A DNA stretch of 64,000 bases, taken from an uncultured Planctomycetia bacterium (GTDB lineage: Bacteria; 4484-113; JAGGVC01). Numbering within the stretch: position 1 is the stretch's first letter; each line of letters opens with the position of its first letter. The stretch is from assembly GCA_964388445.1 (NCBI GenBank), contig CAYMAI010000001.1:336215-400214 (forward strand), written 5' to 3'. Shown here piece by piece: positions 2,461-59,307 of the stretch. The translations under genes were made by a program, and so were the position numbers. The notes below the pieces were generated by a model that saw nothing but the letters and a program-made list of their open reading frames with translations, made no database searches and had not been told where the DNA came from.

Positions 2461-4566
2461 CTATTTGGCCGGCTTTGGATTATCGGCAGCGGATGGAAAC
2501 AGAAAAACGGCGGAAAGAAGCATGCCCGCGATTAAAAACCATACGGCTACTTTATCCTCGAATTTCTCTTCGAACTTGAATTCGAGTGCGTGCCCTCCGG
2601 GAGGAATCAAAACCGCTTGAAACGCGCCGTTCGCTTCGATAATTCGAACCCGATTTCCGTCGAGATACGCTTTCCATCCGGGATAGTTTGTCGCCGTTCT
2701 TACGAACAATGCGGATTTATCGGTGTTAATCGAATATTCCTGCAGCCGCGCGGTTGCCGACACAAGTCTCGCTTCCGAAACTTCGCCTCGCGATTCGATT
2801 GCGACGTTTTCGGTAACCAGCGCAATCTGGTCGAGAAACAGCGGATAGTGCGATTCGATATGTCCGAAAATGTCAGGTTCGGATTCGAATTTGCGGACGC
2901 TGTGTATGAGGTAGTATCCCCGAAGCGGCTCCGTAGCGCCGGGGAGTTCGGACGACGGAAGCGCATTCAGCCAGGCGGCTGTTTCGGCGGCGCGCGACTC
3001 CGCCATCGGGCCGTCTCCGCTTGCGAGCGCGGCGGAGTAAAAATCGCGAAAATTTTCGAGAACCAGTTCGCCGGCCCATCCCACGCTTCCGAGCCCCGCG
3101 ATTGACGGATAGCACGGTTTCGAAAACTCGGCGTCGTGATAATTTTCCGGCGCTTCGCCGGTATGGAATATTCGCTTTGCGCCGTCTTCGGCATTCATTT
3201 GTTTGAAAATTTCGGGCACCGGCAGGGCGGATTCCTTCGGCGACGTAAGGTTGAACGCGCGGTGAAACGAAAGCAGCGGGAGGAAGCACAATAGGAAGAG
3301 GGCGGAGGAGGCGATGCGGCGGGCGCGCGCCGAAATCGCGTTAAAAACCGCGCCGTCGAGCGAAATCGCGGCGAGCGCGCAGAGCATGAGAATGGCCGGA
3401 ATTATGAAGCGCGCGGGAATTCGAGTAGCGCTCATCCCAGGCACGAGCCAAAAAATCGCGTATATCCCGGCGTACTTGCCGAGCGCCAGAACGAGCGCCA
3501 CCGCGGCCGCGGAATATGCCGCGAGCGCGGCCTTGTACGCATGCGCGATCGGCAGGGCGAACTTCGATGTCTTGCGCGAAAGAATGCCGATGAAACCGGC
3601 GAGCGCGAAAACGGCCGGGATTACTCCGACGAGCGATACGTATTCGACGAATCCTTGCGGGCCGCGATAATCGGGCGATTGCCATGCGTTCGCCGGCCCG
3701 AACGCGAAAGGATAAAGCAAAGTGGCGAGCATCGTGGGCGGATAGCTGTAGGATAGGAAATCCGCGAACGTAAAATCCGAGCGGTTGCTCATGCCCAGAA
3801 GTTGAAGCGTCGAAAGCACTTGCGGAAGCGCGATAAACGCGCCGAGGAAAAAGCCCGCAGCCGGCGCGGCGATGAACGGCAATACTTTCGGCCTGTTTTC
3901 GCGCCGCTCGACCGCCAGTTTCGCGGCCAGGAGCAAGATTAGCGCGATGAATGAGATGGCTGTCATTTGCGGATGTCCGGCGAGAATCATCGACGCGGAG
4001 ACGATTGAAACGAGAGCGATTTTTTTGAGCAAGCCGGCGTTAGAAGTTCCGCGCAAATGCGCCGCGCGAGCGGCGTCCAGCCCCGCGGCAATAAGCCATG
4101 GCATAAGCGATGCGACCGCGACGAGATTGAAATGGCCGAGGTGGGCAATAAGCGGCCCGCTCGCCATGAACACGGTTGACATTATCGCCGCCCCCGAATG
4201 GCTTGCGGAAAGCCGCCGGAAAAGGAAGTATGCGCCAGCGCCCGCGAGAATCGTGTGCAAAAGACAGAAAAGCGAAATCGCCGTCCAAACGTCGAACAGC
4301 GAATGGAGGAAAAGGTTCGGCGGATAAAGCATCCCCGTCTGGCCTTCGGCGAACAGCGGAAATCCGCACGCCTGATCGGGATACCAAAGCGCGAGCCTGC
4401 CCTCCTTGAGTTCGGAGGCATAAAAGTTTCGCCACGGGTAATTTTGATAGACGATGTCGCCGCTGGGCGCGTAAACTTCGCCGAAGAACAGCACCGGAGA
4501 ATGCAGGACAATCGCCGCCGCGATTATCGCCGCAAGCGCGGCAAAAGCGCCTTTGAATTCCGTCAT
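2461..4566 (-). CDS. Large polytopic membrane protein, YfhO-like (candidate membrane glycosyltransferase family)
   Basis: 701 aa ORF, many hydrophobic segments, conserved-looking N-terminal loop (YQNYPWRNFYASELKEGRLALWYPDQACGFP). Family call from memory only. Confidence 0.5.
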   Translation of the reverse strand: MTEFKGAFAALAAIIAAAIVLHSPVLFFGEVYAPSGDIVYQNYPWRNFYASELKEGRLALWYPDQACGFPLFAEGQTGMLYPPNLFLHSLFDVWTAISLFCLLHTILAGAGAYFLFRRLSASHSGAAIMSTVFMASGPLIAHLGHFNLVAVASLMPWLIAAGLDAARAAHLRGTSNAGLLKKIALVSIVSASMILAGHPQMTAISFIALILLLAAKLAVERRENRPKVLPFIAAPAAGFFLGAFIALPQVLSTLQLLGMSNRSDFTFADFLSYSYPPTMLATLLYPFAFGPANAWQSPDYRGPQGFVEYVSLVGVIPAVFALAGFIGILSRKTSKFALPIAHAYKAALAAYSAAAVALVLALGKYAGIYAIFWLVPGMSATRIPARFIIPAILMLCALAAISLDGAVFNAISARARRIASSALFLLCFLPLLSFHRAFNLTSPKESALPVPEIFKQMNAEDGAKRIFHTGEAPENYHDAEFSKPCYPSIAGLGSVGWAGELVLENFRDFYSAALASGDGPMAESRAAETAAWLNALPSSELPGATEPLRGYYLIHSVRKFESEPDIFGHIESHYPLFLDQIALVTENVAIESRGEVSEARLVSATARLQEYSINTDKSALFVRTATNYPGWKAYLDGNRVRIIEANGAFQAVLIPPGGHALEFKFEEKFEDKVAVWFLIAGMLLSAVFLFPSAADNPKPAK

Positions 4567-25045: not shown

Positions 25046-25487
25046 ATTTCAACTCCTACCATGCGTTAATTGCTGAATAGTAATTTAAGAAACCCGCGAT
25101 GTCGCGCCGCGCAACGCGCATCATCGCCGCATTCGAGCGAATCATTAATAGACTTTCTCTACAAAAACTCTCTCCGTCCACATTCCCGCTCCGAACTTCC
25201 GGAATCCGATTTCCAAATTCGCAAACCCGCTTGTTTCCCAATTCGCAATCCAGTTTGGCGTTTTCCACGCTCCGGGTTTAAACAACGCTCCCGGTTTAAT
25301 AAGAAACACAATCTCCCGCTTCGCTTTGCATCTTGAATACACCTCAGAGTGCGCCACCGCATCCTTGGCGCACAACGGGATTTTACCCCGATTTGCAGGT
25401 TTTAAACCGGCATCAGGCTCGCGTAAATAATCACAATCCCAAGCCGCGGGAAAGCGGTGAAAATGGTGTATAAATCTGTATAATGCG
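25046..25487 (-). repeat. Conserved ~400 bp leader/promoter element, copy 1 of 3
   Basis: Near-identical to 33783..34228 and 56913..57352 from about 25106 (divergent nearer the L1 start); contains inverted repeat GTGCGCCA-N9-TGGCGCAC (25349..25373) and two pairs of direct repeats. Confidence 0.8.
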
Positions 25488-30673: not shown

Positions 30674-31279
30674 TCAGGAACCTTCGGGGGGGAGGACGGT
30701 GATGGGTATCAGTAAGTAAGTTGCATGTTCGTGATTTGGTCTAAGGCTAGAGCCTTGCCAATCTCCATTAATCGCTGGAATTCCATTGCCGTATTCATAC
30801 GAAACACCCAATCCGCCCCATTCGGCGGAATCCGCTGTCGGAATTTCCAGCATATACTCACCTTTCGCTAGTCCATCGATATAATACGAAACTGATGTCT
30901 TAGAAGGTTTCACAATGCCCACAACCCGAACCCAAGTGGTTAATCTGATAATCCCGGCGGAATTAGGTTTCAATGGCAAGGCACTTTCAAGGAAATACTC
31001 CTTAAGCGCGTCCGGAAATCTGTCTGCCGAAACTTCCAAATCAACCTTAAAAGCCTCTCCTTCGCGAATCTTATCTGGAATGGTTACCTCCTTGACGTAA
31101 GGTAAATATTCCGCAACACCAAAACCGCCGGGGGTGGCATAGCCGATTTTGCAGGAACTTGAAAAGCAAAAAACAGCAAATGCAAGGGTAAACACGGTAA
31201 TGGTCAAATGCCCGCAAGCGTCGGAGAAATTAGGTTTGTTGTTCATGTTCATTGCCTGTTTGTTACGTAAGTTAAACAT
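30674..31279 (-). CDS. Lipoprotein of PITVLPxEES family (member L2)
   Basis: Lipobox (FCFSSSC), EYLPYV, TADSAEWGG, C-terminal PITVLPPEGS; start may be an internal Met (31252 or 31246). Confidence 0.6.
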   Translation of the reverse strand: MFNLRNKQAMNMNNKPNFSDACGHLTITVFTLAFAVFCFSSSCKIGYATPGGFGVAEYLPYVKEVTIPDKIREGEAFKVDLEVSADRFPDALKEYFLESALPLKPNSAGIIRLTTWVRVVGIVKPSKTSVSYYIDGLAKGEYMLEIPTADSAEWGGLGVSYEYGNGIPAINGDWQGSSLRPNHEHATYLLIPITVLPPEGS

Positions 31280-31285
31280 TTCAGG

Positions 31286-31795
31286 TCAGGATTCTTCGGC
31301 GGGAAGAACGGTGATGGGGAATTCCAAAGTTGTCTCGTGCTCGTGTTTAGGCCTATCCCTACCATAAAATCCATAATACTTAATTTCGGTGCCCCCCCAT
31401 TCCTCTGAATCCGCAGTTGCAATTACAAGTATGTATGTACCTGCGCTTAGTGGCGGAATTGAAACCGAAATTGAAGATCGCAAAGGGGAACTTGCGAAAT
31501 CGAAAGGATCATATTGCATCCATGTGCTTACTAGAATCTTGTCTCCCGGCATATAAGTGTAATTTGCAGGATCGCTCTCGCCCGCCATAAAACCCCGAAG
31601 TGCATTGGGATTGCGCAATGCTGAGACTTGCAGTATGACATCAAATTCTTCATCTTCAAAAAGATATTCAGGGACAATTGCAGACTCCACAAATGGAAGA
31701 TATTCCCTATTCCAATTGGGAACAGGGCCTGCAATTCCGCGGTTACTGCACGAAGTCAATGTCAAGCTCATCAGACACAGCAAGACAAATCTCAT
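31286..31795 (-). CDS. Lipoprotein of PITVLPxEES family (member L3)
   Basis: Start set at internal ATG 31795 (MRFVLLCLMSLTLTSC, SD-like AAGGTGG upstream) rather than track start 31897, which would overlap the peptidase; EYLPFV, TADSEEWGG, PITVLPAEES. Confidence 0.6.
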   Translation of the reverse strand: MRFVLLCLMSLTLTSCSNRGIAGPVPNWNREYLPFVESAIVPEYLFEDEEFDVILQVSALRNPNALRGFMAGESDPANYTYMPGDKILVSTWMQYDPFDFASSPLRSSISVSIPPLSAGTYILVIATADSEEWGGTEIKYYGFYGRDRPKHEHETTLEFPITVLPAEES

Positions 31796-31853: not shown

Positions 31854-33782
31854 CTACCATCCATTGATTGCAGCGTAGTAATTTGCAATGCCAGCAATTG
31901 GCACTGCTCCGGTTTGATCCAAGTCCCGTCTGCGAGTATTTACTATTCTTGCTTGAACTTGGATATAGGTTGAGTCTGGGCGAATTCGGTACAAATGAAA
32001 TGCAAGCGATGAAACTTGTGGTGCACATGCGGATGTCCCATTAAAGTGATCGTAGCCGGAAAAAGGTATTGTTGATAAATGGCGACTTCCAGACATGAAA
32101 TCCATAAAGTCATATATTCCCGATACCGGATAGGTTGTGTAGTTATCGCTGAAATAGTTAGAACCGTTGCCGATTTCTCCCGTGTCCCACTGAGTTCCGT
32201 AAAAGTTTGTCCTAAGCCCACTCACGCCTAAAACGTTGTCATGCGCCGCGGGATATGTGCGCAAGTGCTTGCGCTCGTTTCCAGCGCTTGCAACATATAA
32301 CCGATCGTTTCGCCTTAGATCAAGCGATATTTCATCCTTCATGGTCTTCGGAGGATTCCAGTCCATGTACTTCCATCCTCCACCAAAACTCATATTGACT
32401 ACTCTTACCTTCTCTCTCCAATTGAGATGAGGCTGTCGTGGATCGTGATGAAATTCGAACCTTAGCGCTCTTATTGCTTTTAGCATCGAACCTGCAGTAA
32501 ACTTTTCCAAATATCCATCGACAATATTGTCAACCTTTAATCGTATGGGGAGAATTTTTGCATTTGGAGCCATGCTTGCAGTGCCGATGGAGTTGTTCGT
32601 AGCAGCCGAAATAATTCCCGCAACATTTGTACCATGTTTTGCCAGATTTCCGGTAACAGGATCGATAAATGTAGGCTCTCCCTTACCTTTGCCTACTTCA
32701 TAGGACTTATCCCAGCAGTCGACACCGATGTTGCTAATATGCCAATCTCGAACTCCTCCACCTTGAGTTGGACCGTTCAGATCTGGATGGTTTCTATAAA
32801 CCCCCGAATCAATGACCGCAACCATTTGGTCCGAAAAATTAGCGCTTCCTTGACCCCCTTCGGGCCCATAAGGTATTTGAGGAATCTGGTTCACGAAAAA
32901 GTGATTGATATAAAGCGCTTTGTTGCTGGTGTAATGCGTGTCGTTCGGAGGAGGATAATCTGCGGTATATTCGTCCATTGTATTTGGCTGAGCCTGTTCA
33001 ATCTTCTGATGAGTGCTGAAATATGCGTAAGCGAGGTCGAATGTAGAAAATCTTTCCTCAGTGAATCTAAACTGAAACCATGCGATTGAATTTCCCTCTT
33101 CTGGTTCTTCCGGCCCTTCAAACCAAGAAAAGATTACGTAAAGATCGTTAGCGGCAATGAAATTGCTAATTTCCTGCTCCGTCACTTCCTGCTTGAATAA
33201 CACAATCATCTCGTCTTCAGCGATTTCGAATTCCCCGCCAGCGGGTGCAGTCCAAATAATTGTCTCCGGTGATTCTTCATTATAGTTTGTAGTAAAAAAG
33301 TCCTGCAGAGGTTCGTTAGTTACCAGAATGTTTCCGTTGGGCAGTTGATACGTGCCTGTAAACGGATCGGGACTTGAGAGGCGGTTAACGGTAACAAATT
33401 GCCCCGGAGAAATCTCGACAACGCTTTGGGAGATTACAGGACCCCAGGGATTAATCTGGTCCAAATAAGGATCCAACAGCGATTGCGGATCACCGATAGG
33501 ACCTGCTATCTGCCTTTCCCAGCCTTCAGGCGGGTCGCCGCCGCTATCGAATGGCCCTTCGCCTCCGCCACCGGGATCGTTAGCAATTGCGGTTTGCCGA
33601 GTTTTCTCTGGGTCTTTGGAATCGGCACCATCCTGCGATTGCTGCGAATCGATTCTTGCCCCTGCGGTCATCTTGGCGTCCCTGTCACAAGACATCAGCG
33701 CAAAGGCGCACATCATTACAAGGGCGAGTAAAACTACCCCCCCCCCCCAGCCGGGGGCAAACGAAAACTTGGACTTTTTCAT
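31854..33782 (-). CDS. S8-family (subtilisin-like) serine peptidase, lipoprotein
   Basis: Catalytic triad motifs AVIDSGV, HGTNVAGII, GTSACAP; lipobox ALMSC; first ~40 aa and upstream leader nucleotide-identical to the peptidase at 55161..56912; 12-nt G run in signal-peptide codons. Confidence 0.85.
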   Translation of the reverse strand: MKKSKFSFAPGWGGGVVLLALVMMCAFALMSCDRDAKMTAGARIDSQQSQDGADSKDPEKTRQTAIANDPGGGGEGPFDSGGDPPEGWERQIAGPIGDPQSLLDPYLDQINPWGPVISQSVVEISPGQFVTVNRLSSPDPFTGTYQLPNGNILVTNEPLQDFFTTNYNEESPETIIWTAPAGGEFEIAEDEMIVLFKQEVTEQEISNFIAANDLYVIFSWFEGPEEPEEGNSIAWFQFRFTEERFSTFDLAYAYFSTHQKIEQAQPNTMDEYTADYPPPNDTHYTSNKALYINHFFVNQIPQIPYGPEGGQGSANFSDQMVAVIDSGVYRNHPDLNGPTQGGGVRDWHISNIGVDCWDKSYEVGKGKGEPTFIDPVTGNLAKHGTNVAGIISAATNNSIGTASMAPNAKILPIRLKVDNIVDGYLEKFTAGSMLKAIRALRFEFHHDPRQPHLNWREKVRVVNMSFGGGWKYMDWNPPKTMKDEISLDLRRNDRLYVASAGNERKHLRTYPAAHDNVLGVSGLRTNFYGTQWDTGEIGNGSNYFSDNYTTYPVSGIYDFMDFMSGSRHLSTIPFSGYDHFNGTSACAPQVSSLAFHLYRIRPDSTYIQVQARIVNTRRRDLDQTGAVPIAGIANYYAAINGW

Positions 33783-34228
33783 GTCCTACTCCTTTGGTTG
33801 AATTTTGAAATATCGCGTACGCTTGGGCGGGCGTTCTTACGCCGCGCCGCGCGCATCATCGCCGCTTTCGAGCGAATCCTTAATAGACCTTCTCTACCAA
33901 AACTCTCTCCGTCCACATTCCCGCTCCGAACTTCCGGAATCCGATTTCCAAATTCGCAAACCCGCTTGTTTCCCAATTCGCAATCCAGTTTGGCGTTTTC
34001 CACGCTCCGGGTTTAAACAACGCTCCCGGTTTAATAAGAAACACAATCTCCCGCTTCGCTTTGCATCTTGAATACACCTCAGAGTGCGCCACCGCATCCT
34101 TGGCGCACAACGGGATTTTACCCCGATTTGCAGGTTTTAAACCGGCATCAGGCTCGCGTAAATAATCACAATCCCAAGCCGCGGGAAAGCGGAGAAGCTT
34201 TTGTATAAATTTGTATAACCGGTCCGCG
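33783..34228 (-). repeat. Conserved leader/promoter element, copy 2 of 3
   Basis: Identical or near-identical to 56913..57352 and 25106..25487; identity continues into the peptidase coding region to about 33660. Confidence 0.85.
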
Positions 34229-48437: not shown

Positions 48438-49472
48438 GTGCGAACCGCAGTGATACTTCTCGGAGGCGCCGGAACCAGACTTGCGCCGCTTACGAACAGC
48501 ACGCCGAAGCCGGCCGTTCCGTTTTTGGACAAGCCGATTATTTCCTACCTAATCGGCCTTCTGAAAGACGCCGGCATCGGGCGGCTCGTTTTATGCCTCG
48601 GTCACGGTAGCGAATCTATACTGGGACTAATGGAAGCGAACTCCGGGTTCGGCCTCGAATTCACGCCGGTAATCGAAGAATCGCCGCTCGGAACGGGAGG
48701 CGCTCTGAGGGCGGCGTATTCGAAACTTGCGCCGGATGAACCCTTCATCGCGGTGAACGGCGATTTGCTCTGCAACATCGATATTTCGGCGATGAAATCC
48801 AGAATGAGCGCGCTCGGTTGCGATTGTGCGATAGCGCTTAAGGCTGTCGATAATCCTTCACGGTTCGGCCTGGTAAAACTCGACGAAGAAGGCAGGGCGG
48901 CTTCGTTCGTCGAAAAATCGGCAGAGCCCGGCGAGCCGCCGTATCTGGTCAACGCCGGAATGTACGTATTGCGGCCCGAGCTGCTCTTGCGATTTCCCGA
49001 AAGCGAGCCGCTGAGTTTGGAACGGGATATGTTTCCCCGTTGGATTGGCGAAGGCGTGAAAATAGCCGGTTACGAACATAACGGATACTGGCGGGACATC
49101 GGTACGCTGACGAGCTATTTCCGCGCGCATTTCGAGGTCTTGCATCATTACTATCTCTACGATCCGGCGTTCGCGAACAGGGATGAAAAGGGATTCAGCC
49201 TGTTCAAAGGTTACATTTATATCGAAAACAGCGTGAAAATGGCCGGAAAAGCGCGGCTGGACGGGCATGTCGTACTGATGAAAGGCTGCGAGGTGGGGGA
49301 AGGCGCCCATTTAAGCCGCGTGATTGCGCTGCCGTATTCCAAAATCGGGGAAGGCGCAATACTGCGCGACGCGATTATCGGGCCGGACGTAACTATCGAG
49401 TCCGGAGCCCGCGCCGAAGAAATCTGCATTACCGCCGACACGAAAGTGCCGCTCGATACTTACGAGGATTGA
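48438..49472 (+). CDS. Sugar-phosphate nucleotidyltransferase with C-terminal left-handed beta-helix
   Basis: N-terminal NTP-transferase motif (AVILLGGAGTRLAPLT) and C-terminal hexapeptide repeats; GTG start. Confidence 0.8.
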   Translation: MRTAVILLGGAGTRLAPLTNSTPKPAVPFLDKPIISYLIGLLKDAGIGRLVLCLGHGSESILGLMEANSGFGLEFTPVIEESPLGTGGALRAAYSKLAPDEPFIAVNGDLLCNIDISAMKSRMSALGCDCAIALKAVDNPSRFGLVKLDEEGRAASFVEKSAEPGEPPYLVNAGMYVLRPELLLRFPESEPLSLERDMFPRWIGEGVKIAGYEHNGYWRDIGTLTSYFRAHFEVLHHYYLYDPAFANRDEKGFSLFKGYIYIENSVKMAGKARLDGHVVLMKGCEVGEGAHLSRVIALPYSKIGEGAILRDAIIGPDVTIESGARAEEICITADTKVPLDTYED

Positions 49473-50062
49473 TCGCCGGAGTTTAGCCGTCGCGTGCCGG
49501 TTAGTTTCTCGAAATATTCAAGCTGAGCTTTGCCATGGATTCGCTGTTTTTCCCGGTTGGATTTTTGCGTTTCTGCGAACCTTTCCAATTCCACTTCGGT
49601 TTTGCCTTCGATTTCCGGCTTTGTGAAATCCGCGCTCCATATTTGGCATTCCGTTTCCAGCCGATCTTTCAGCATCCATGCAATCTCCATCGTTTCGGCG
49701 CGGAAATGCGCGCCTGCTTGGCCGCTTGCGCAATCGCCGCAGAAACTCATCGAGTCTCCCATGGCGATTCCGTTAATCACTGGCGGCATAGCGACGCCGT
49801 TCACGGTTTCAAGGACGATGTAGTTCACGCCCAGGTCGGTAATGTGCTGGCGGATTACCCCGTCCGACGGAAAAGAAAAACCCGAAAAACTTTTGTTCGA
49901 CGCCTGCGCCTGCAGCGAAGCGGGATAAGGCAAAGGCTGCTGCGGTTCGGCGAATGATGGATTCGGCAGCTTTCCGAGCGCGAAATACATCGCCAGCGCG
50001 CCGAATATGAACGACAGTGCGGCAACCCTGAAGATGAAAAACAAACCCGGTCTTTCGTTCAC
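49460..50062 (-). CDS. Membrane-anchored hypothetical protein (unclassified family, intact copy)
   Basis: N-terminal TM, conserved block FSFPSDGVIRQHITDLGVNYIVLETVNGVAMPP, Cys-containing C-terminal region; paralog of the disrupted copy at 50373..50978. Confidence 0.5.
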   Translation of the reverse strand: MNERPGLFFIFRVAALSFIFGALAMYFALGKLPNPSFAEPQQPLPYPASLQAQASNKSFSGFSFPSDGVIRQHITDLGVNYIVLETVNGVAMPPVINGIAMGDSMSFCGDCASGQAGAHFRAETMEIAWMLKDRLETECQIWSADFTKPEIEGKTEVELERFAETQKSNREKQRIHGKAQLEYFEKLTGTRRLNSGDQSS

Positions 50063-50372: not shown

Positions 50373-50978
50373 TCATTGGTTTTGCGGTGCAGTTGTGGAC
50401 TCTGAATAACTAGCTATGAATCCCTCAATATACTCCAGCTGTGCTCTACGGTGGTTGTTAATAATCGTGCGTCGCGCAAGCTTGCTATTGTAAATCTTAT
50501 CGATTTCCTTATCTGTTTTACCCTCGATTTGATGAAGCTTGATTGGAACTTCCTCTATTGCCACTCTTTGCTTGATATCTCTGCGGATTTGCATTGCTAG
50601 TTCCATAGTTTCTTTCATAAATGCCGACCCGGCATCGCGGCCACCTCAGCCCGCCCCGATTGACGGTTCAGACCCAAGCTCGATACCATTTACAATCGGA
50701 GGCAAAGCCATGCCGTTCACCGTTTCCAGTACAATGAAGTTTACGCCGCAGTAGTTGGTAATTTGCCTTACCGCACCATCAACCGGAAAGGAATAATCCG
50801 TAATTATGGAATCGCTTCTTTCCAATAAAATTGATGACGGGTACTTCTGCAAGCCTACCTCCTGGGCGGCCGCATAATTCAGCTGGCATACAAATGACAA
50901 GTAAACTGCCACGCCGCCTAGGGCGAAGCAGATAGTGGCAATTCTGAATGCACTAAAGAACTGAAAACCCTTCTTCAT
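50373..50978 (-). pseudogene. Disrupted paralog of 49460..50062 (split into two frames)
   Basis: Track ORFs 50646..50978 and 50373..50618 match the N- and C-terminal halves of the intact copy but are in different frames; region is AT-richer than background. Confidence 0.5.
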
Positions 50979-52134: not shown

Positions 52135-53922
52135 TTAATTACGCAAATCGTATATCCAAATCGCGCCGTTCGCGATTACCTCGTCCGGCCGCGAATTCAG
52201 GAACGCGGCGGATAATTCATGCGCACGCGCCGATTGTTCGACGAATAAATTTACGTCGGTTATTTCGGAGTAACCGGTTGCAACCCAAAGACTAACCGCA
52301 TAGACGTTTCCCGGCTTGAAATCTCGGGGTAGGACGTCGTCCGGCGTTACTAGCGTTGCGTTTAGACCGTACACCGCCGGGTTGTCGCGCAAATTTCCGT
52401 AATACAACTTCACTCCTGCCACGCCGTTTTCGTCCATCCATTTTTTCAGCGCTGGCAGGCCCTGTCCCCAGTCCAAATTCGAGTCGCTAAGCAGATATGC
52501 CCGTCTTGCCGGCGATCCAGCGAATTCATTCATGTAACTTATCGGATATGGCATTTGACTAAGGCTCGACGTCGCCGCAAATAAAACCAAGGCCGCGCAA
52601 ACCGCCGTTCCGTACTTTTTCAACGCTGGAATGCGATCGAACCCCGTTAATGCGCCGGACGCGTAAACGAAAAGCAACGGATAAACGAACAGCAGGTGTC
52701 TTACTCCGAAATTCATACCGCTGAATATCGCGATGGCCGAGTAAATGAAAACGGGGATGAGCAGCGCAGTCTCGAAATCGCGGACCTTTGCCGGTTTGGC
52801 GAACGTAAGTGCCGCGCTCGACAAAATTAACAGCATAATCGCGATCGGAGTTTTGAAAAAAAATACCGCGGGAAAATAATGCCACCATCCGCGCAGGCTG
52901 AATTCGCCGAACAAATAAGCCGGATGTCCGAGTGATATGTGATGGAATACCTGATATATGCCCAGCATTGTTTCCTTTTGCACGGGTACTGCGGTAAGCG
53001 CTCCGGCAATCGCATCCTCGATAGGCGTGTCCCCAGGTATCGCGGAATCAATCCTTTCCTCGAATCGCGGCGAATTTTCGGGAGTGATTTTTTTCATCGT
53101 GAACGCGTAAGCCAAGGGAATAGCAAGCGCCAAAGCGGCGGCAACAAAAGCCAAGTAAAAAAGTATAAAACCGCAAAGAGCTCCGCATGGCGATTTGCCC
53201 GGTAACTTGATGCGAAAAATTCGAGTGGGAATTTTGAATGCTCCGCGCTTGAAAAGCCATGCGAAAATTGCAATAGAACAAAGCGGCACGGCAAGCCCGC
53301 TGAATTTTGTCAGCGCCGCTGCCGCGGTGAAAAACATCAGAAGCGAAAAGCTAAGCATCGAACCGGTTTTTGCGAAACGAATCGTGAAATACACGGACGC
53401 CAAAACCGCCGCTGCGATTGCCGCGTCGCTGTTCGCAAGCGCGGCGTGCGCGATAAGGTTCGGCTCGATGGCGAAAATCGCAATCGCAAGAGTGCCGGCC
53501 TTTGTGCCGTAAATTTCGCGCGCCGACAGGAACGCGAATACACTTGAAAGCGAGACCAAAATCAGCAGGGGCAGCCTCGCAGCGAACAGAATCCAAAGTT
53601 GATTTTTTTCGTTTACGCGCCAAAATTCCTCGGAAAACGCGATTTGATCCTTTGCGTTCCACGCGCCGCCGCCAATCGGCGATTTAACGCCCGCTGCCGC
53701 GAGCGGCATACCGATTAGCCATTTTGTGAGCGGAGGATGCTCGGTGTTCATTCTGAAGTCCCGAGCGCCATAATATGAAACTGCGGCGGGAATGTGCAAT
53801 GCCTCGTCGTTGGTAAGCCCGTTTTTGTGGGCAACCCAAGCGCCTTGAGCAAAAAATATCGCAATTAACAGCGCGATGGGTAGCCCCTGAATTCCGGTTG
53901 AAAAAAGGCGCTTCACGCACAA
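52135..53922 (-). CDS. GT-C membrane glycosyltransferase (PMT/ArnT-like, COG1807-type), paralog 1
   Basis: 595 aa polytopic protein; first extracytoplasmic loop with acidic DE motif (GLTNDEALHI), large C-terminal soluble domain; about 50-60% identical in aligned N-terminal blocks to 57463..59307. Confidence 0.8.
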   Translation of the reverse strand: MCVKRLFSTGIQGLPIALLIAIFFAQGAWVAHKNGLTNDEALHIPAAVSYYGARDFRMNTEHPPLTKWLIGMPLAAAGVKSPIGGGAWNAKDQIAFSEEFWRVNEKNQLWILFAARLPLLILVSLSSVFAFLSAREIYGTKAGTLAIAIFAIEPNLIAHAALANSDAAIAAAVLASVYFTIRFAKTGSMLSFSLLMFFTAAAALTKFSGLAVPLCSIAIFAWLFKRGAFKIPTRIFRIKLPGKSPCGALCGFILFYLAFVAAALALAIPLAYAFTMKKITPENSPRFEERIDSAIPGDTPIEDAIAGALTAVPVQKETMLGIYQVFHHISLGHPAYLFGEFSLRGWWHYFPAVFFFKTPIAIMLLILSSAALTFAKPAKVRDFETALLIPVFIYSAIAIFSGMNFGVRHLLFVYPLLFVYASGALTGFDRIPALKKYGTAVCAALVLFAATSSLSQMPYPISYMNEFAGSPARRAYLLSDSNLDWGQGLPALKKWMDENGVAGVKLYYGNLRDNPAVYGLNATLVTPDDVLPRDFKPGNVYAVSLWVATGYSEITDVNLFVEQSARAHELSAAFLNSRPDEVIANGAIWIYDLRN

Positions 53923-53980
53923 AGTTTACATCAAATTCGAAATTCGCGGCTAACAGGCGTGGATAAACCTCATTGCGCGC

Positions 53981-54075
53981 TAAGGCGCGAATATCCGAAT
54001 CGCGCCGTTCGCGATTACGCCGTCCGGCCGGCGCCCCGCGATGACCGCAAATCTCGCTTCGCGACCCCCGATTGG
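53981..54075 (-). other. Fragment homologous to the 3' end of the GT-C glycosyltransferase genes (gene remnant)
   Basis: About 90 nt near-identical to the last codons and stop region of 57463..59307 and 52135..53922 (CGCGAATATCC(G/A)AATCGCGCCGTTCGCGATTAC...), between lipoprotein L4 and GT-C paralog 1. Confidence 0.5.
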
Positions 54076-55160: not shown

Positions 55161-56912
55161 CTAGGGACGTAATGTCTCGTACGCATTCAACTTCCAAGCG
55201 CCAAGATTGGGGTCGTAAGTGGCGCGCTGAAGAATCCGGTTCTTAGCGAGTTGTGGCGCTGAGTATTGGGGTCTCGTTACCAGCATCCCTGCTACAGCGC
55301 TCACATGTGGAGTGGCAGCGGACGTGCCGCTAAAAGCTGCGGTCAAGCCTTCCGGGTCACTTCGATAGCCAAGGTCGTACAAACCATTTGGGCTCTTTCC
55401 AACCATATCGACTGTCCAAATGAGCTGGTTTCCGGATCCTTCTCCACCTGGAGCAAATACGCTTCCCAATTTGCTGTATCCTGTCATTTGCCCAGATATC
55501 TTGTACGCACCTACAGACAATACTCTAGGATGTCTTGCAGGCCAATCTTCGGGCCATCTGGGTTCAGCGACTTCTTTGCGATTTCCTGCCGCGGCTACAA
55601 AAAGCATGTGTTGGGTGAGCTTGTCGAGAAAGCGCATATTCGTCTCACCTAAAGACGGTCCGCCGAAGCTACAATTTACAACCTCAATATTAGTATAAGG
55701 TACTTGCGGAACGAAAGGATAATACTCCCAATCCGCGCGGTAAATCCTCTTGACGCATCCTATAGCGAGGAATGAATTGGCTAAAGTAGAAGTTGAAAAA
55801 CCGCTATTGTGATACATTGCGATCGGCAGAATACGAGGACAACGAACAATTCCGCAAATATCCTGCTCGTCGTCTAACTGGTAGCCGGGGTCGTTATTGA
55901 TTGCGGATCCGATTATTCCAGCGACACAGGTACCATGACCCGCACTGCGAGCTGATACTGCACTAGCGTTTAACACACTTGGACTTGGCTGACCATGCCC
56001 TTGACCGAATGTTGTCCACCATTTGCTATCGTACGTGTTAACGCCCCATGAAAGAAATGCGGAACCTAGATCTTTATTGGCTTGCCTTCTCTGAACTCCA
56101 GTATCCAATATCGCAATTATGCCGGAATCGTAATAGTAATTCTTCCAAGCGTTCTGAATTCTAATGCTCTGTCCACTCGCATCGCGTATCGCCCATTGAA
56201 ACGGAAACAGATCGTCATCGGGCTCTGCGTCTATTGGCCATGCGCAGGTCGAAGCCAACGCATCCGGATCGACGGAATCGATTAAGTCGGGATATTCGTC
56301 CGGCCAATATTCGACTGCATACTCAATGCTTGTTCCTTGCGGCAACAGCGCGCCTATGCACTTTACCGCGTTCCACTCCACAAAGACTGCCAATTCTTCG
56401 GCAAGCACAAAATCGGCAACATCTTGATCCTCCGATACGGTGCTGTATGATGTTTGATGATAGTACTCATCCTCTGGGGATATTTCCTCATCGAAGTAGT
56501 TCGGGTCAACATCGGGATATTCCGGCGGGTTCTTGAACGCGATTATTACTCTTCCGTCGATTATAGGGTATGTCTCCTGGGTACGCGGATCGGTAAAGTC
56601 GCGAATGTCCCATTCGTCTTCTTCGTCGAATCCGCCGCCGCTTCCGCCCGGGCCGCCGTCCATCGGCTCTTCTCCGCCTCCGCCGAAATCTCCCGCGGAC
56701 GAGTTTCCGCGACTTTTGGTTGCGGATTGGCTTTCCGTAATGGCATCCTGGCCGGCTGCCGGTGTTGCTGGAATCAAACCGGTCGCATCCCCTGCGGTCA
56801 TCTTGGCGTCCCTGTCACAAGACATCAGCGCAAAGGCGCACATCATTACAAGGGCGAGTAAAACTACCCCCCCCCCCCAGCCGGGGGCAAACGAAAACTT
56901 GGACTTTTTCAT
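55161..56912 (-). CDS. S8-family (subtilisin-like) serine peptidase, lipoprotein, paralog 2
   Basis: Triad motifs IAILDTGV, HGTCVAGII, GTSAATPHVSAVAGML; N-terminal 40 aa and 5' leader identical to the peptidase at 31854..33782; same 12-nt G run. Confidence 0.85.
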   Translation of the reverse strand: MKKSKFSFAPGWGGGVVLLALVMMCAFALMSCDRDAKMTAGDATGLIPATPAAGQDAITESQSATKSRGNSSAGDFGGGGEEPMDGGPGGSGGGFDEEDEWDIRDFTDPRTQETYPIIDGRVIIAFKNPPEYPDVDPNYFDEEISPEDEYYHQTSYSTVSEDQDVADFVLAEELAVFVEWNAVKCIGALLPQGTSIEYAVEYWPDEYPDLIDSVDPDALASTCAWPIDAEPDDDLFPFQWAIRDASGQSIRIQNAWKNYYYDSGIIAILDTGVQRRQANKDLGSAFLSWGVNTYDSKWWTTFGQGHGQPSPSVLNASAVSARSAGHGTCVAGIIGSAINNDPGYQLDDEQDICGIVRCPRILPIAMYHNSGFSTSTLANSFLAIGCVKRIYRADWEYYPFVPQVPYTNIEVVNCSFGGPSLGETNMRFLDKLTQHMLFVAAAGNRKEVAEPRWPEDWPARHPRVLSVGAYKISGQMTGYSKLGSVFAPGGEGSGNQLIWTVDMVGKSPNGLYDLGYRSDPEGLTAAFSGTSAATPHVSAVAGMLVTRPQYSAPQLAKNRILQRATYDPNLGAWKLNAYETLRP

Positions 56913-57352
56913 GTCCTACTCCTTTGGTTGAATTTTGAAATATCGCGTACGCTTGGGCGGGCGTTCTTACGCCGCGCCGCGCGCATCATCGCCGCTTTCG
57001 AGCGAATCCTTAATAGACCTTCTCTACCAAAACTCTCTCCGTCCACATTCCCGCTCCGAACTTCCGGAATCCGATTTCCAAATTCGCAAACCCGCTTGTT
57101 TCCCAATTCGCAATCCAGTTTGGCGTTTTCCACGCTCCGGGTTTAAACAACGCTCCCGGTTTAATAAGAAACACAATCTCCCGCTTCGCTTTGCATCTTG
57201 AATACACCTAAGGCAGCGCCACCGCATCCTTGGCGCACAACGGAATTTTACCCCGATTTACAGGTTTTAAACCGGCTTCAGGCTCGCGTAAATAATCACA
57301 ATCCCAAGCCGCTGGAAATCAGTGAAAATTGTGTATAAATCTGTATAACGCG
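56913..57352 (-). repeat. Conserved leader/promoter element, copy 3 of 3
   Basis: Matches 33783..34228 and 25106..25487; identity extends into the peptidase coding region to about 56790. Confidence 0.85.
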
Positions 57353-57462
57353 GGAATGACGCCGCGAGAAATGCCTATTATCGCGAGGGGCAAGCACTTA
57401 ATTAGAATGCAGCCTCGCGGCTCGCGCATATAGGCATCGAGCTAACGTGTGCGAATGGCTCG

Positions 57463-59307
57463 CTACGGCGCGAATATCCAAATCGCGCCGTTCGCGATTA
57501 CCTCGTCCGGCCGGCGGCTTACTATGTCCGCATATCTCGCTTCCGCGGCGCGCCAGTCCTCTTCGTTATCGAAAAATCCGTACGTCAGATTCATGTCCGC
57601 GACCGTCCACATGCTTATCGCGTACACTTCGCCCTCGATGAATTCGTCCGGGTTCAGCTCTAGCGGGTCTTTGAGAATATAGTTAAAGTCATATAGCGCG
57701 GGATTATCGCTAAGGTTTCGATAAAACAGCCGAACGGTTTTAATGCCGTGCTTTTGCGTCCACTTTTCCAGCGCGGGCAAGCCCTGTCCCCAGTCGAGGT
57801 TCGAATCGCTCAAAAGCCACGCGCGCCGCTGATGGCCGCCCGCGAATTCGTTCATATAGCTTATGTAATACGGCGCCTCGTGAAGCGGCGAGAAAATCAT
57901 GAACGCCGCCAGTGCGCCTATCGCCGTTTGCAGCGCTAGGTTTTTAACGTTCAATTCTTTTCGCTTGACCGGTTTTCCGCCGACTTTGTATTCGTCCGGG
58001 TCGAACCGCGGCTTCGTCCTGAACCCGACGGCGAGTATTCCCGACGCGTAAACGAATAACAGCGGGAATATAAACAGCAAATGCCGCACGCCGAGATTGA
58101 TGCTGCCGAGAATCGCGGTAGCGGCATAAATCAATATCGGAATGACTAGGACGGATTCGCTTATCCAAATTTCACGGTCTTTGCGGTAAGCGAAAACAAC
58201 GCTCAAAAGTATTAGCGCCATAAGCGCAATCGGAGTTTTGAAAAAGAATACGACGGGAAAGTAATACCACCATCCGTGAAGCGCATATTTTCCGAGCAGA
58301 AAGGAAGGATGCCCCACGTCGTTATGCTGAAACACTTGATATAAGCCCATTATGTATTCTTTGGGCAGCGGTATTTTTTGAGCGAAGTCGATTAGCTGCT
58401 CGCGAAGCGGAAAACCGTCGGGAATTCGTACGTCGCAAATGTATTCGAAATTCGGCGAGTTTTCGGGAGTGATTACCGTCAATTTGAAACCGTAACTCAA
58501 AAGCACTGCGAAGAGACCCGCGAGGAAAAACCAAAGAGACATAATAAGTATGAACGCCGCGCCGCGCGCGCCGCGCGATTTAAACGGCAGTTTGATGCCG
58601 AGAAGCGTGCGAGGTATTTGATATTGCGTGGGATAGTTTCTTAAAAGGTATATGTATAAAAATATCAATAGCGGAAGCACAAATAGCCCGCTGTATTTAA
58701 TCAAAATCGCGATAGACGAAAAGACGAGAAGGAAAACGAAATCGATGTGTTTGAGAGATTTTAAAAACTTCAGCGCAAAGTATATACAGGCGGCAACGGT
58801 CAATCCGAGAGGCGCGTCGCTGTTCGCAAGCGACGCATGAGCGATGAAATTCGGCTCGAAAGCGAATAGGAACATCGCGAAAAGCCCGGCCTTTTCGCCG
58901 TAAATCTCGCGCCCTAAAAGGAAAATGAACGCGCCCATCAGCGCGCAAAAAAGAAGGTTCGGAATGCGGGCGAGGAATAAAAACTTGCGCTGGTTAGACG
59001 AGTTCTCCTTCCAAAAATCGCGTGCGTATTCGATTTGCTTTTTTGCGTCCCAATACGGCGAATCCGCTGGAAGTCGCGCGCCCGCGGCGGCAAGCGGCAG
59101 CCCCGCCAGCCACTTCGTAAAAGTGGGATGCTCCGTGTTCATACGAAAATCGCCCGCCTTCCAATATGTCACACCGGACGCGATGTGAACGAGTTCGTCC
59201 GTGGTCATCCCGTTGCTTTTCGCAACCCAAAGACCCTGAGCGAAAAAGATAAGGGCGAAGAGCGCAACCGCTCCCCAAACCAACGGTCCGCTTTTGATGG
59301 TTTCCAC
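57463..59307 (-). CDS. GT-C membrane glycosyltransferase (PMT/ArnT-like), paralog 2
   Basis: 614 aa; same architecture and motifs as 52135..53922 (MTTDELVHI loop, conserved C-terminus RPDEVIANGAIWI). Confidence 0.8.
   Translation of the reverse strand: METIKSGPLVWGAVALFALIFFAQGLWVAKSNGMTTDELVHIASGVTYWKAGDFRMNTEHPTFTKWLAGLPLAAAGARLPADSPYWDAKKQIEYARDFWKENSSNQRKFLFLARIPNLLFCALMGAFIFLLGREIYGEKAGLFAMFLFAFEPNFIAHASLANSDAPLGLTVAACIYFALKFLKSLKHIDFVFLLVFSSIAILIKYSGLFVLPLLIFLYIYLLRNYPTQYQIPRTLLGIKLPFKSRGARGAAFILIMSLWFFLAGLFAVLLSYGFKLTVITPENSPNFEYICDVRIPDGFPLREQLIDFAQKIPLPKEYIMGLYQVFQHNDVGHPSFLLGKYALHGWWYYFPVVFFFKTPIALMALILLSVVFAYRKDREIWISESVLVIPILIYAATAILGSINLGVRHLLFIFPLLFVYASGILAVGFRTKPRFDPDEYKVGGKPVKRKELNVKNLALQTAIGALAAFMIFSPLHEAPYYISYMNEFAGGHQRRAWLLSDSNLDWGQGLPALEKWTQKHGIKTVRLFYRNLSDNPALYDFNYILKDPLELNPDEFIEGEVYAISMWTVADMNLTYGFFDNEEDWRAAEARYADIVSRRPDEVIANGAIWIFAP

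Follow-up and report, generated by a model that had tools for sequence, protein, structure and literature searches.

What small lipoproteins encoded beside peptidases do, and why several of them should end in the same few residues, are the questions raised by a 64,000-nucleotide (nt) stretch of the genome of an uncultured Planctomycetia bacterium (assembly GCA_964388445.1, contig CAYMAI010000001.1, positions 336,215 to 400,214 of the forward strand; hereafter the window, numbered from its first nucleotide). A first-pass annotation, made from the sequence alone, had described five small lipoprotein genes there (L1 to L5; Table 1) as one paralogous family that always lies next to S8 peptidases (subtilases) and ends in an invariant PITVLPxEES, and had offered cognate inhibitors, chaperones, substrates or a novel C-terminal recognition tag as candidate roles. 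All five minus-strand open reading frames (ORFs) were confirmed, each with a plausible lipobox in a pattern check, but only L1, L2 and L3 proved to be homologous. By profile searches these three belong to an uncatalogued lipoprotein family, here labelled FAM, whose genes have a fixed place downstream of those for S8 lipoprotein peptidases of a single clade, and our analysis suggests, with a probability of roughly 0.4, that FAM proteins are dedicated membrane-anchored partners of the mature subtilase, serving as its tether, stabiliser or regulator.

An uncatalogued lipoprotein family

A FAM profile hidden Markov model (HMM) matched only L1, L2 and L3 among the proteins of the window. Pairwise, the three are 37–40% identical, and they share YLP(Y/F)(V/I), (S/T)TW and a terminal PITVLP(A/P)E(E/G)S much as first described, the remaining shared motif being more exactly TA(D/E)SxEWGG. 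Profile–profile comparison (hhalign) of L4 with FAM gave an alignment restricted to the last 13 residues, in agreement with the earlier remark that L4 keeps the C-terminal motif and nothing else, and the HMM search and hhalign together led us to reject L4 and L5 as distant FAM members. These two are weak paralogues of each other (BLASTP E = 0.004). Against Pfam PKD_4, L4 stayed below the 27-bit cutoff (E = 0.1, 13 bits; PKD profiles tested, PF00801 and PF18911), and neither L5 nor FAM matched a PKD profile in Pfam; L4 also resembles the PKD-like C-terminal domain of a FAM fusion protein, P0083 (E = 1e-4). L4 and L5 would seem to be a different lipoprotein type from L1–L3, weakly PKD-like at best.

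An exhaustive HMMER profile search over 1.84 billion representatives recovered 146 FAM clusters at E ≤ 1e-3, 62 of them at E ≤ 1e-10. Word-indexed homologue searches under-reported the family (5 proteins with the L1–L3 profile, 9 with a 112-member profile), and a related-locus search with a narrow alignment returned 4 short metagenome loci and 2 genome loci. Members are mostly 165–200 residues long (typically about 180) and nearly all were matched end to end, with the lipobox cysteine kept in 123 of the 127 aligned sequences (97%) and a consensus for that alignment of YLPYVExVxxP..AGExF..L..SA...P..L.G ... W ... G.Y.L...SA.sRE.GG ... P ... (I/F)TVLP(AE). None of 112 members gave a real match to Pfam-A, no NCBIfam model matched L3 (or L4 or L5), and structure comparison found no specific structural relative, so that the earlier failure to place the family is borne out. 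The mature part of L3 was modelled with AlphaFold2 as an all-beta sandwich (predicted local distance difference test score (pLDDT) 82.6, predicted template modelling score (pTM) 0.76), and the mature part of FAM proteins is predicted to be one immunoglobulin (Ig)-like beta-sandwich domain of about 150 residues, running from strand YLPYVE to strand (I/F)TVLP. Other architectures include three-domain tandems (P0015, P0029, P0040 and P0061), the fusion of FAM to a PKD-like domain in P0083, and a peptidase pro-region joined straight to FAM, the catalytic domain being absent (P0037, L023:2671-3891).

A fixed partner of one peptidase clade

Three units can be recognised in the window, each behind a copy of a shared leader: leader–L1, leader–pep1–L3–L2 and leader–pep2–L5–L4, where pep1 and pep2 are S8 subtilase lipoproteins. 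They sit among housekeeping genes (serS, trkA, rsmA and PMT_2 glycosyltransferases). The genes of the pep1 unit follow one another at a spacing of 6–10 nt. The claim that the lipoproteins always adjoin S8 peptidases holds for L3 and L2 behind pep1 and for L5 and L4 behind pep2, but not for L1. This gene stands alone behind its leader, without an intervening peptidase gene, and is flanked by genes for an rRNA adenine dimethylase (RrnaAD) and a DUF6232-like protein.

The same linkage recurs in other samples. At about a dozen distinct loci with readable upstream sequence, FAM comes straight after a pep1-type S8 gene or what is left of one, and no readable locus departed from this arrangement, which upholds the expectation that homologues would be found beside S8 peptidases in other genomes. 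Starting from FAM, an S8 gene was found immediately upstream in L001, L007, L008, L014, L015-17, L018, the P0159 contig and L023, with the gene order pep–FAM–FAM in L014 and with L007 and L008 named with an ‘uncultured Planctomycetales’ metagenome-assembled genome (MAG). Starting instead from four independently chosen peptidase homologues (contigs of 68–298 kb), 1–3 FAM genes follow directly, and the genes flanking these four loci are otherwise unrelated housekeeping genes. FAM is the fixed downstream partner of this peptidase clade. A literature search found nothing on a subtilase/lipoprotein operon in Planctomycetes.

Where the peptidase has decayed, several forms are seen, including a leader joined directly to FAM (L1), the pro-region–FAM fusion P0037 and a truncated peptidase (P0177). 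Peptidase C-terminal fragments of about 60–65 residues also lie directly upstream of FAM (L002:947-1318; L018:1616-2107 and 2704-3012; L023:2137-2634). These fragments come from unrelated samples and run from the catalytic-serine motif to an invariant tryptophan; they could mark a site prone to recombination or a cis element that has been kept.

In the peptidases themselves, the whole clade keeps the catalytic residues of pep1 (D325, H383, N502 and S584), which are intact in both pep1 and pep2. In the predicted pep1 model, the lipobox leads into a disordered linker of about 55 residues. Next come a beta N-domain (residues ~90-180) and, at 184-274, a prodomain of beta-alpha-beta-beta-alpha-beta order; a low-confidence hinge (277-287) then joins it to the catalytic domain (319-642), whose very last residue (642) is the clade-invariant tryptophan. 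A conserved lipobox, the linker and the prodomain ahead of the hinge are features of the clade as a whole. Its best structural matches were unautoprocessed pro-subtilisin E, fervidolysin, SUB1 with its prodomain and pro-Tk-subtilisin, and prodomain-bearing structures aligned over about 100 more columns than catalytic-only ones; two clade members gave weak Fervidolysin_NPro-like matches. On this model, pep1 is predicted to carry its own I9-like prodomain, an intramolecular chaperone. The beta N-domain (window ~33243-33515), with its near-invariant VNRLSSPDPFT, is conserved no less strongly than the catalytic core; neither this domain nor the terminal tryptophan of the clade matches a Pfam model. 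A defence-system scan with PADLOC gave generic subtilase matches only.

A proposed membrane-anchored partner of the mature enzyme

We favour a role for FAM as a membrane partner because it is linked in an operon with the peptidase, because both products are lipoproteins and because the only anchor of the peptidase lies N-terminal to a removable prodomain. The lipid anchor of the peptidase would be present only at the N-terminal end of its pro-region, and removal of the I9-like prodomain on activation would leave the catalytic domain without an anchor. A FAM lipoprotein could then bind the mature enzyme and hold, stabilise or restrain it at the membrane surface, supplying in trans the beta-sandwich accessory domain that is found at the C terminus of many secreted subtilases. 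Many secreted subtilases carry such C-terminal beta-sandwich appendages (P-domain, PPC, PKD and Fn3-like modules). As in those enzymes, a beta-sandwich module is paired one-to-one with an S8 catalytic domain, and in the pep2 unit (unit C) the position of the appendage is taken by the weakly PKD-like L5 and L4, to which the domain fused in P0083 is similar. FAM differs in being encoded by a gene of its own and lipid-anchored independently, and no Pfam model for these appendages matches it.

The closest parallel that we found is dentilisin of Treponema denticola (PrcB–PrcA–PrtP), in which an acylated subtilase likewise shares one operon with small accessory lipoproteins. There, the acylated N-terminal polypeptide of PrtP is removed on activation while PrcB and PrcA1 keep their lipid anchors, and PrcB (23 kDa) interacts with PrtP and is needed for its detection and stability (PMC8167434). 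There are also differences: PrcB and PrcA are restricted to oral treponemes; FAM has no NCBIfam or Pfam match and is set apart from PrcB and PrcA at the level of these profiles; and the peptidases are not PrtP orthologues, because they match NCBIfam denti_PrtP far below its 300-bit cutoff (E about 1e-5, 22–25 bits). If FAM does tether or regulate its enzyme, the problem of retaining a subtilase on the cell surface once its lipidated pro-piece is lost would have been solved twice, independently, here and in dentilisin, and FAM would offer a handle on how surface proteolysis is organised in little-studied bacteria. The findings also define a domain family outside Pfam and NCBIfam and a conserved two-gene module (a lipoprotein subtilase and an Ig-like lipoprotein) in uncultivated bacteria, some of whose source MAGs are labelled Planctomycetales.

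Several observations weigh against a tethering partner. The accessory genes of dentilisin lie upstream of the peptidase and FAM lies downstream; autoprocessing of the prodomain is assumed from its predicted fold; and the taxonomic placement of the module rests on a few MAG titles. FAM persists where the adjacent peptidase has been lost, in part or completely (L1, L002, L018 and L023), which may mean that it has a function of its own or acts in trans. FAM copies also diverge faster (25–40% identity) than the peptidases (40–47%), and they number from 1 to 4 per peptidase, in expansions that are lineage-specific; fast divergence and varying copy number would be no less in keeping with a role in an arms race or in surface variation than with a stoichiometric subunit.

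The conserved ending and alternative roles

In the L3 model, the C-terminal motif forms the last beta-strand of the fold (pLDDT about 95), with the TVL residues predicted to be buried and the strand lying within the sandwich. In the four tandem proteins it also stands at internal domain ends, running straight into the next domain (for example, TALPPEDEDLYYTGYIPFVEE in P0015 and TINVQQPEFDDLYYYGYLPYVEE in P0040). The tail after the motif proline is short (median 4 residues; 0–11 in all but four members), with many E, A, G and P residues and no hydrophobic segment; positions +1 and +2 favour Ala-Glu, and 18 of the 127 members (14%) have no tail, most of them ending in ...VLP (for example, L019, L020 and L022:7086). 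Variants within FAM include TVIERP, TVQPAP, TVEPAL and EVLP. Across genomes the TVLP codons vary synonymously (ACA/ACC/ACG/ACT, GTC/GTG/GTT/GTA and so on), so the motif is under selection at the protein level. On the predicted structure, the motif is a last strand with a proline cap, marking a domain boundary.

One alternative is that FAM is a cognate inhibitor, or a temporary inhibitor-chaperone, that blocks the active site until the enzyme is in place, possibly through its C-terminal end. The model for such a role is ORF2 of Aeromonas sobria, an external chaperone and inhibitor encoded just downstream of the subtilase ASP, whose C-terminal residues bind round the catalytic site and inhibit the enzyme (PMC5638518). 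FAM resembles ORF2 as a small dedicated protein encoded immediately 3′ of its subtilase, and tightly spaced from it; its C-terminal end is among its best conserved parts, as the C-terminal end of ORF2 is functional; and its fast divergence would fit co-evolution of enzyme and inhibitor. Deletion of a single C-terminal residue is reportedly enough to abolish ORF2 function (Kobayashi et al. 2015). However, ASP has no propeptide and ORF2 substitutes for it, whereas pep1 has a predicted prodomain of its own; FAM is an Ig-like, all-beta protein and not of the alpha/beta, propeptide-like fold of ORF2; and its TVL residues are buried in a strand, its tail is variable in length or absent and its motif can be internal. 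Neither Inhibitor_I9-type nor ASP–ORF2-type features were found in FAM, which combines an all-beta fold and a variable tail with a protease that brings its own prodomain. We consider inhibition unlikely. As a substitute for the propeptide, FAM was rejected, the pep1 prodomain being indicated by both the model and its structural matches; of the functional links to the peptidase first proposed, the synteny stands and a propeptide-replacing chaperone is improbable.

More doubtful still is the idea that FAM is a substrate or cargo which the subtilase processes, for example by cutting off the acidic tail behind TVLP, so as to mature a surface protein; the motif would then be a recognition site for the protease. 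The tail-less members look as if genetically ‘pre-trimmed’, the preference for Ala-Glu at +1/+2 could reflect a cleavage site, and the dentilisin partner PrcA is cleaved by PrtP (PMC8167434). Against this, the model predicts an ordered strand at the motif, the removal of 0–9 residues would have no obvious purpose, and the TVIERP, TVQPAP and TVEPAL variants show no conserved context for a scissile bond. In a specific and improbable form of cleavage, (I/F)TVLP|AE(E) would be the site of the cognate subtilase, with the acidic tail trimmed and the ...TVLP end either kept as a product-like lock or transferred for attachment; the tail-less 14% would then be naturally ‘pre-processed’ forms. Were this true, it would amount to a protease-dependent C-terminal lipoprotein maturation without known counterpart.

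Recombination as the probable source of the uniform ends

Within this genome the motif has a second layer. The ITVLP codons are identical in L1, L3 and L4 (ATC ACC GTT CTT CCC), and the 3′ ends of L1–L4 form one 42-nt DNA repeat family (D4 in a repeat-finder search), with the motif far beyond chance. The PITVLPxEES ending that drew attention to these genes is thus real in L1–L4, but its invariance here is largely a matter of DNA. Beyond it, the operon-terminal genes L1, L2 and L4 have a 3′ module of about 120 nt in common, which continues for about 75 nt past the stop codon through a GC-rich hairpin (at L1, GCGCTCCGGCGGC...CCCGCCGGGGCGC). Identity is 69–86% over the last 48 coding nt and 74–80% downstream of the stop, and the 100 nt before and 100 nt after the module are at about 50%, which is background. 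The last 48 nt of L4 are 86% identical to those of L3, and the preceding 100 nt are again at background. Because the module is so similar and its flanks are at background, the L4 ending appears to be a recombinational graft of the shared module onto an unrelated gene.

The 5′ ends are alike as well. Leader copies of 379–437 nt precede L1, pep1 and pep2 at 96.6–100% identity, and between copies B and C the identity extends through peptidase codon 41 (33660-33782 versus 56790-56912): codons 1–41, covering signal peptide, lipobox and the start of the linker, are identical in DNA between pep1 and pep2, and the rest of the proteins is about 31% identical. The leader gave no Rfam match even at E ≤ 1 (the Rfam scan of the window returned one tRNA only), its folding energy is unremarkable (z = −1.4, measured on copy A), and a sigma-70 scan found no convincing minus-strand promoter in it. 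None of the other genomes with the peptidase–FAM module has this leader, and in the related strain L002 it is reduced to the outermost ~90 nt on either side. The leader is probably a shared regulated promoter and 5′ untranslated region kept uniform by gene conversion, and the uniform motif in this genome would be attributable to recombination or gene conversion that keeps both ends of the three units alike.

These similarities also raise the possibility that the units are cassettes for variable surface lipoproteins, in which the leader with its signal peptide and the 3′ module serve as recombination handles and the protease is just cargo. The unit ends are alike (5′, 96–100%; 3′, 74–86%) and the interiors are 37% identical or unrelated; L002 holds a different unit behind a leader adjacent to a glycosyltransferase gene; lineage-specific expansions and decayed copies are seen; and unit C is flanked by an 89-nt direct repeat (D7). 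Yet no invertase, recombinase, inverted repeats or archive of silent cassettes was seen in the window, and the leader is absent from other module-bearing genomes, so that it would be a local feature and leave the family unexplained. Ordinary co-regulation together with gene conversion accounts for these data as well, and we give such cassettes a slim chance.

Least probable by far, and very unlikely in our assessment, is the proposal that PITVLPxEES is a novel C-terminal tag for sorting or anchoring, read by dedicated machinery that would export the protein or attach it covalently: the ending is strongly conserved in L1–L4 and recognisable across FAM, but the motif is not a sorting signal, to judge from the models, because it is the last strand of the fold, is internal in tandem proteins and is followed by a short or absent tail without a membrane helix. 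FAM shares with LPXTG, PEP-CTERM, GlyGly-CTERM and type IX secretion system (T9SS) C-terminal domain proteins a short conserved motif near the C terminus of an envelope protein. It differs in that no hydrophobic segment and basic cluster of a tripartite signal follow TVLP, a T9SS C-terminal domain (~80-100 residues, Por_Secre_tail-type profiles) was likewise not found, a lipoprotein signal is already present, and no cognate sorting enzyme (sortase-, exosortase- or rhombosortase-like gene) is linked in the loci inspected. For readings made from sequence alone the case holds a caution: a terminal peptide of striking invariance can turn out to be a strand of the fold, homogenised by local gene conversion, and not a signal.

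Features of the window and minor observations

The features discussed above are collected in Table 1. The public gene call (P0003) starts L2 at Met12.

Table 1 Lipoprotein genes, peptidase genes and shared repeats in the window
Feature	Positions	Strand	Description
L1	24482..25045	minus	FAM lipoprotein, lipobox VAGC; FAM HMM E = 2.4e-44
L2	30674..31279	minus	FAM lipoprotein, lipobox SSSC; last gene of the pep1 operon; FAM HMM E = 3.6e-41
L3	31286..31795 (to 31843 with the longer start)	minus	FAM lipoprotein, lipobox LTSC; first gene after pep1; FAM HMM E = 2.8e-45
L4	54158..54607	minus	Small lipoprotein of the other, weakly PKD-like type, lipobox LSSC; ends PITVLPSEES
L5	54645..55151	minus	Small lipoprotein, lipobox FAGC; ends YPVVSVE, without the motif; not FAM
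pep1	31854..33782	minus	S8 subtilase lipoprotein; Pfam Peptidase_S8 (PF00082) E = 1.9e-29, above gathering score
pep2	55161..56912	minus	Divergent S8 subtilase lipoprotein; Pfam Peptidase_S8 (PF00082) E = 2.5e-26, above gathering score
Leader copy A	25105..25483	minus	5′ of L1; 97% identical to copy B over 379 nt
Leader copy B	33783..34219	minus	5′ of pep1; opens with direct repeat TTATACA-N3-TTATACA
Leader copy C	56913..57349	minus	5′ of pep2; 96.6% identical to copy B over 437 nt
3′ module at L1	24407..24529	minus	Last 48 nt of coding sequence and ~75 nt downstream; repeat family D3
3′ module at L2	30599..30721	minus	From repeat family search and alignment
3′ module at L4	54083..54205	minus	Last ~15 codons of L4 and 75 nt past the stop

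Unit C has a PMT_2-type glycosyltransferase paralogue on either side (52135..53922 and 57463..59307). The copies of its 89-nt direct repeat (53972-54060 and 57455-57543, 85% identical; 52149-52191 is listed beside them) correspond to the 3′ end of a glycosyltransferase gene, and the flanks of the unit suggest an earlier insertion or the replacement of a paralogue. In L002, the 3′ end of a glycosyltransferase gene likewise abuts a leader, with a different unit behind it.

Elsewhere in the window, a group of paralogous small membrane-anchored proteins is encoded on the minus strand at 49460..50062, 50373..50618 and 50646..50978, the second copy apparently being split into two ORFs. The 200-residue copy has no Pfam match, and the paralogues share the motif GVN(Y/F)IVLETVNG(V/M)A(M/L)PP(V/I)(I/V)NGI.

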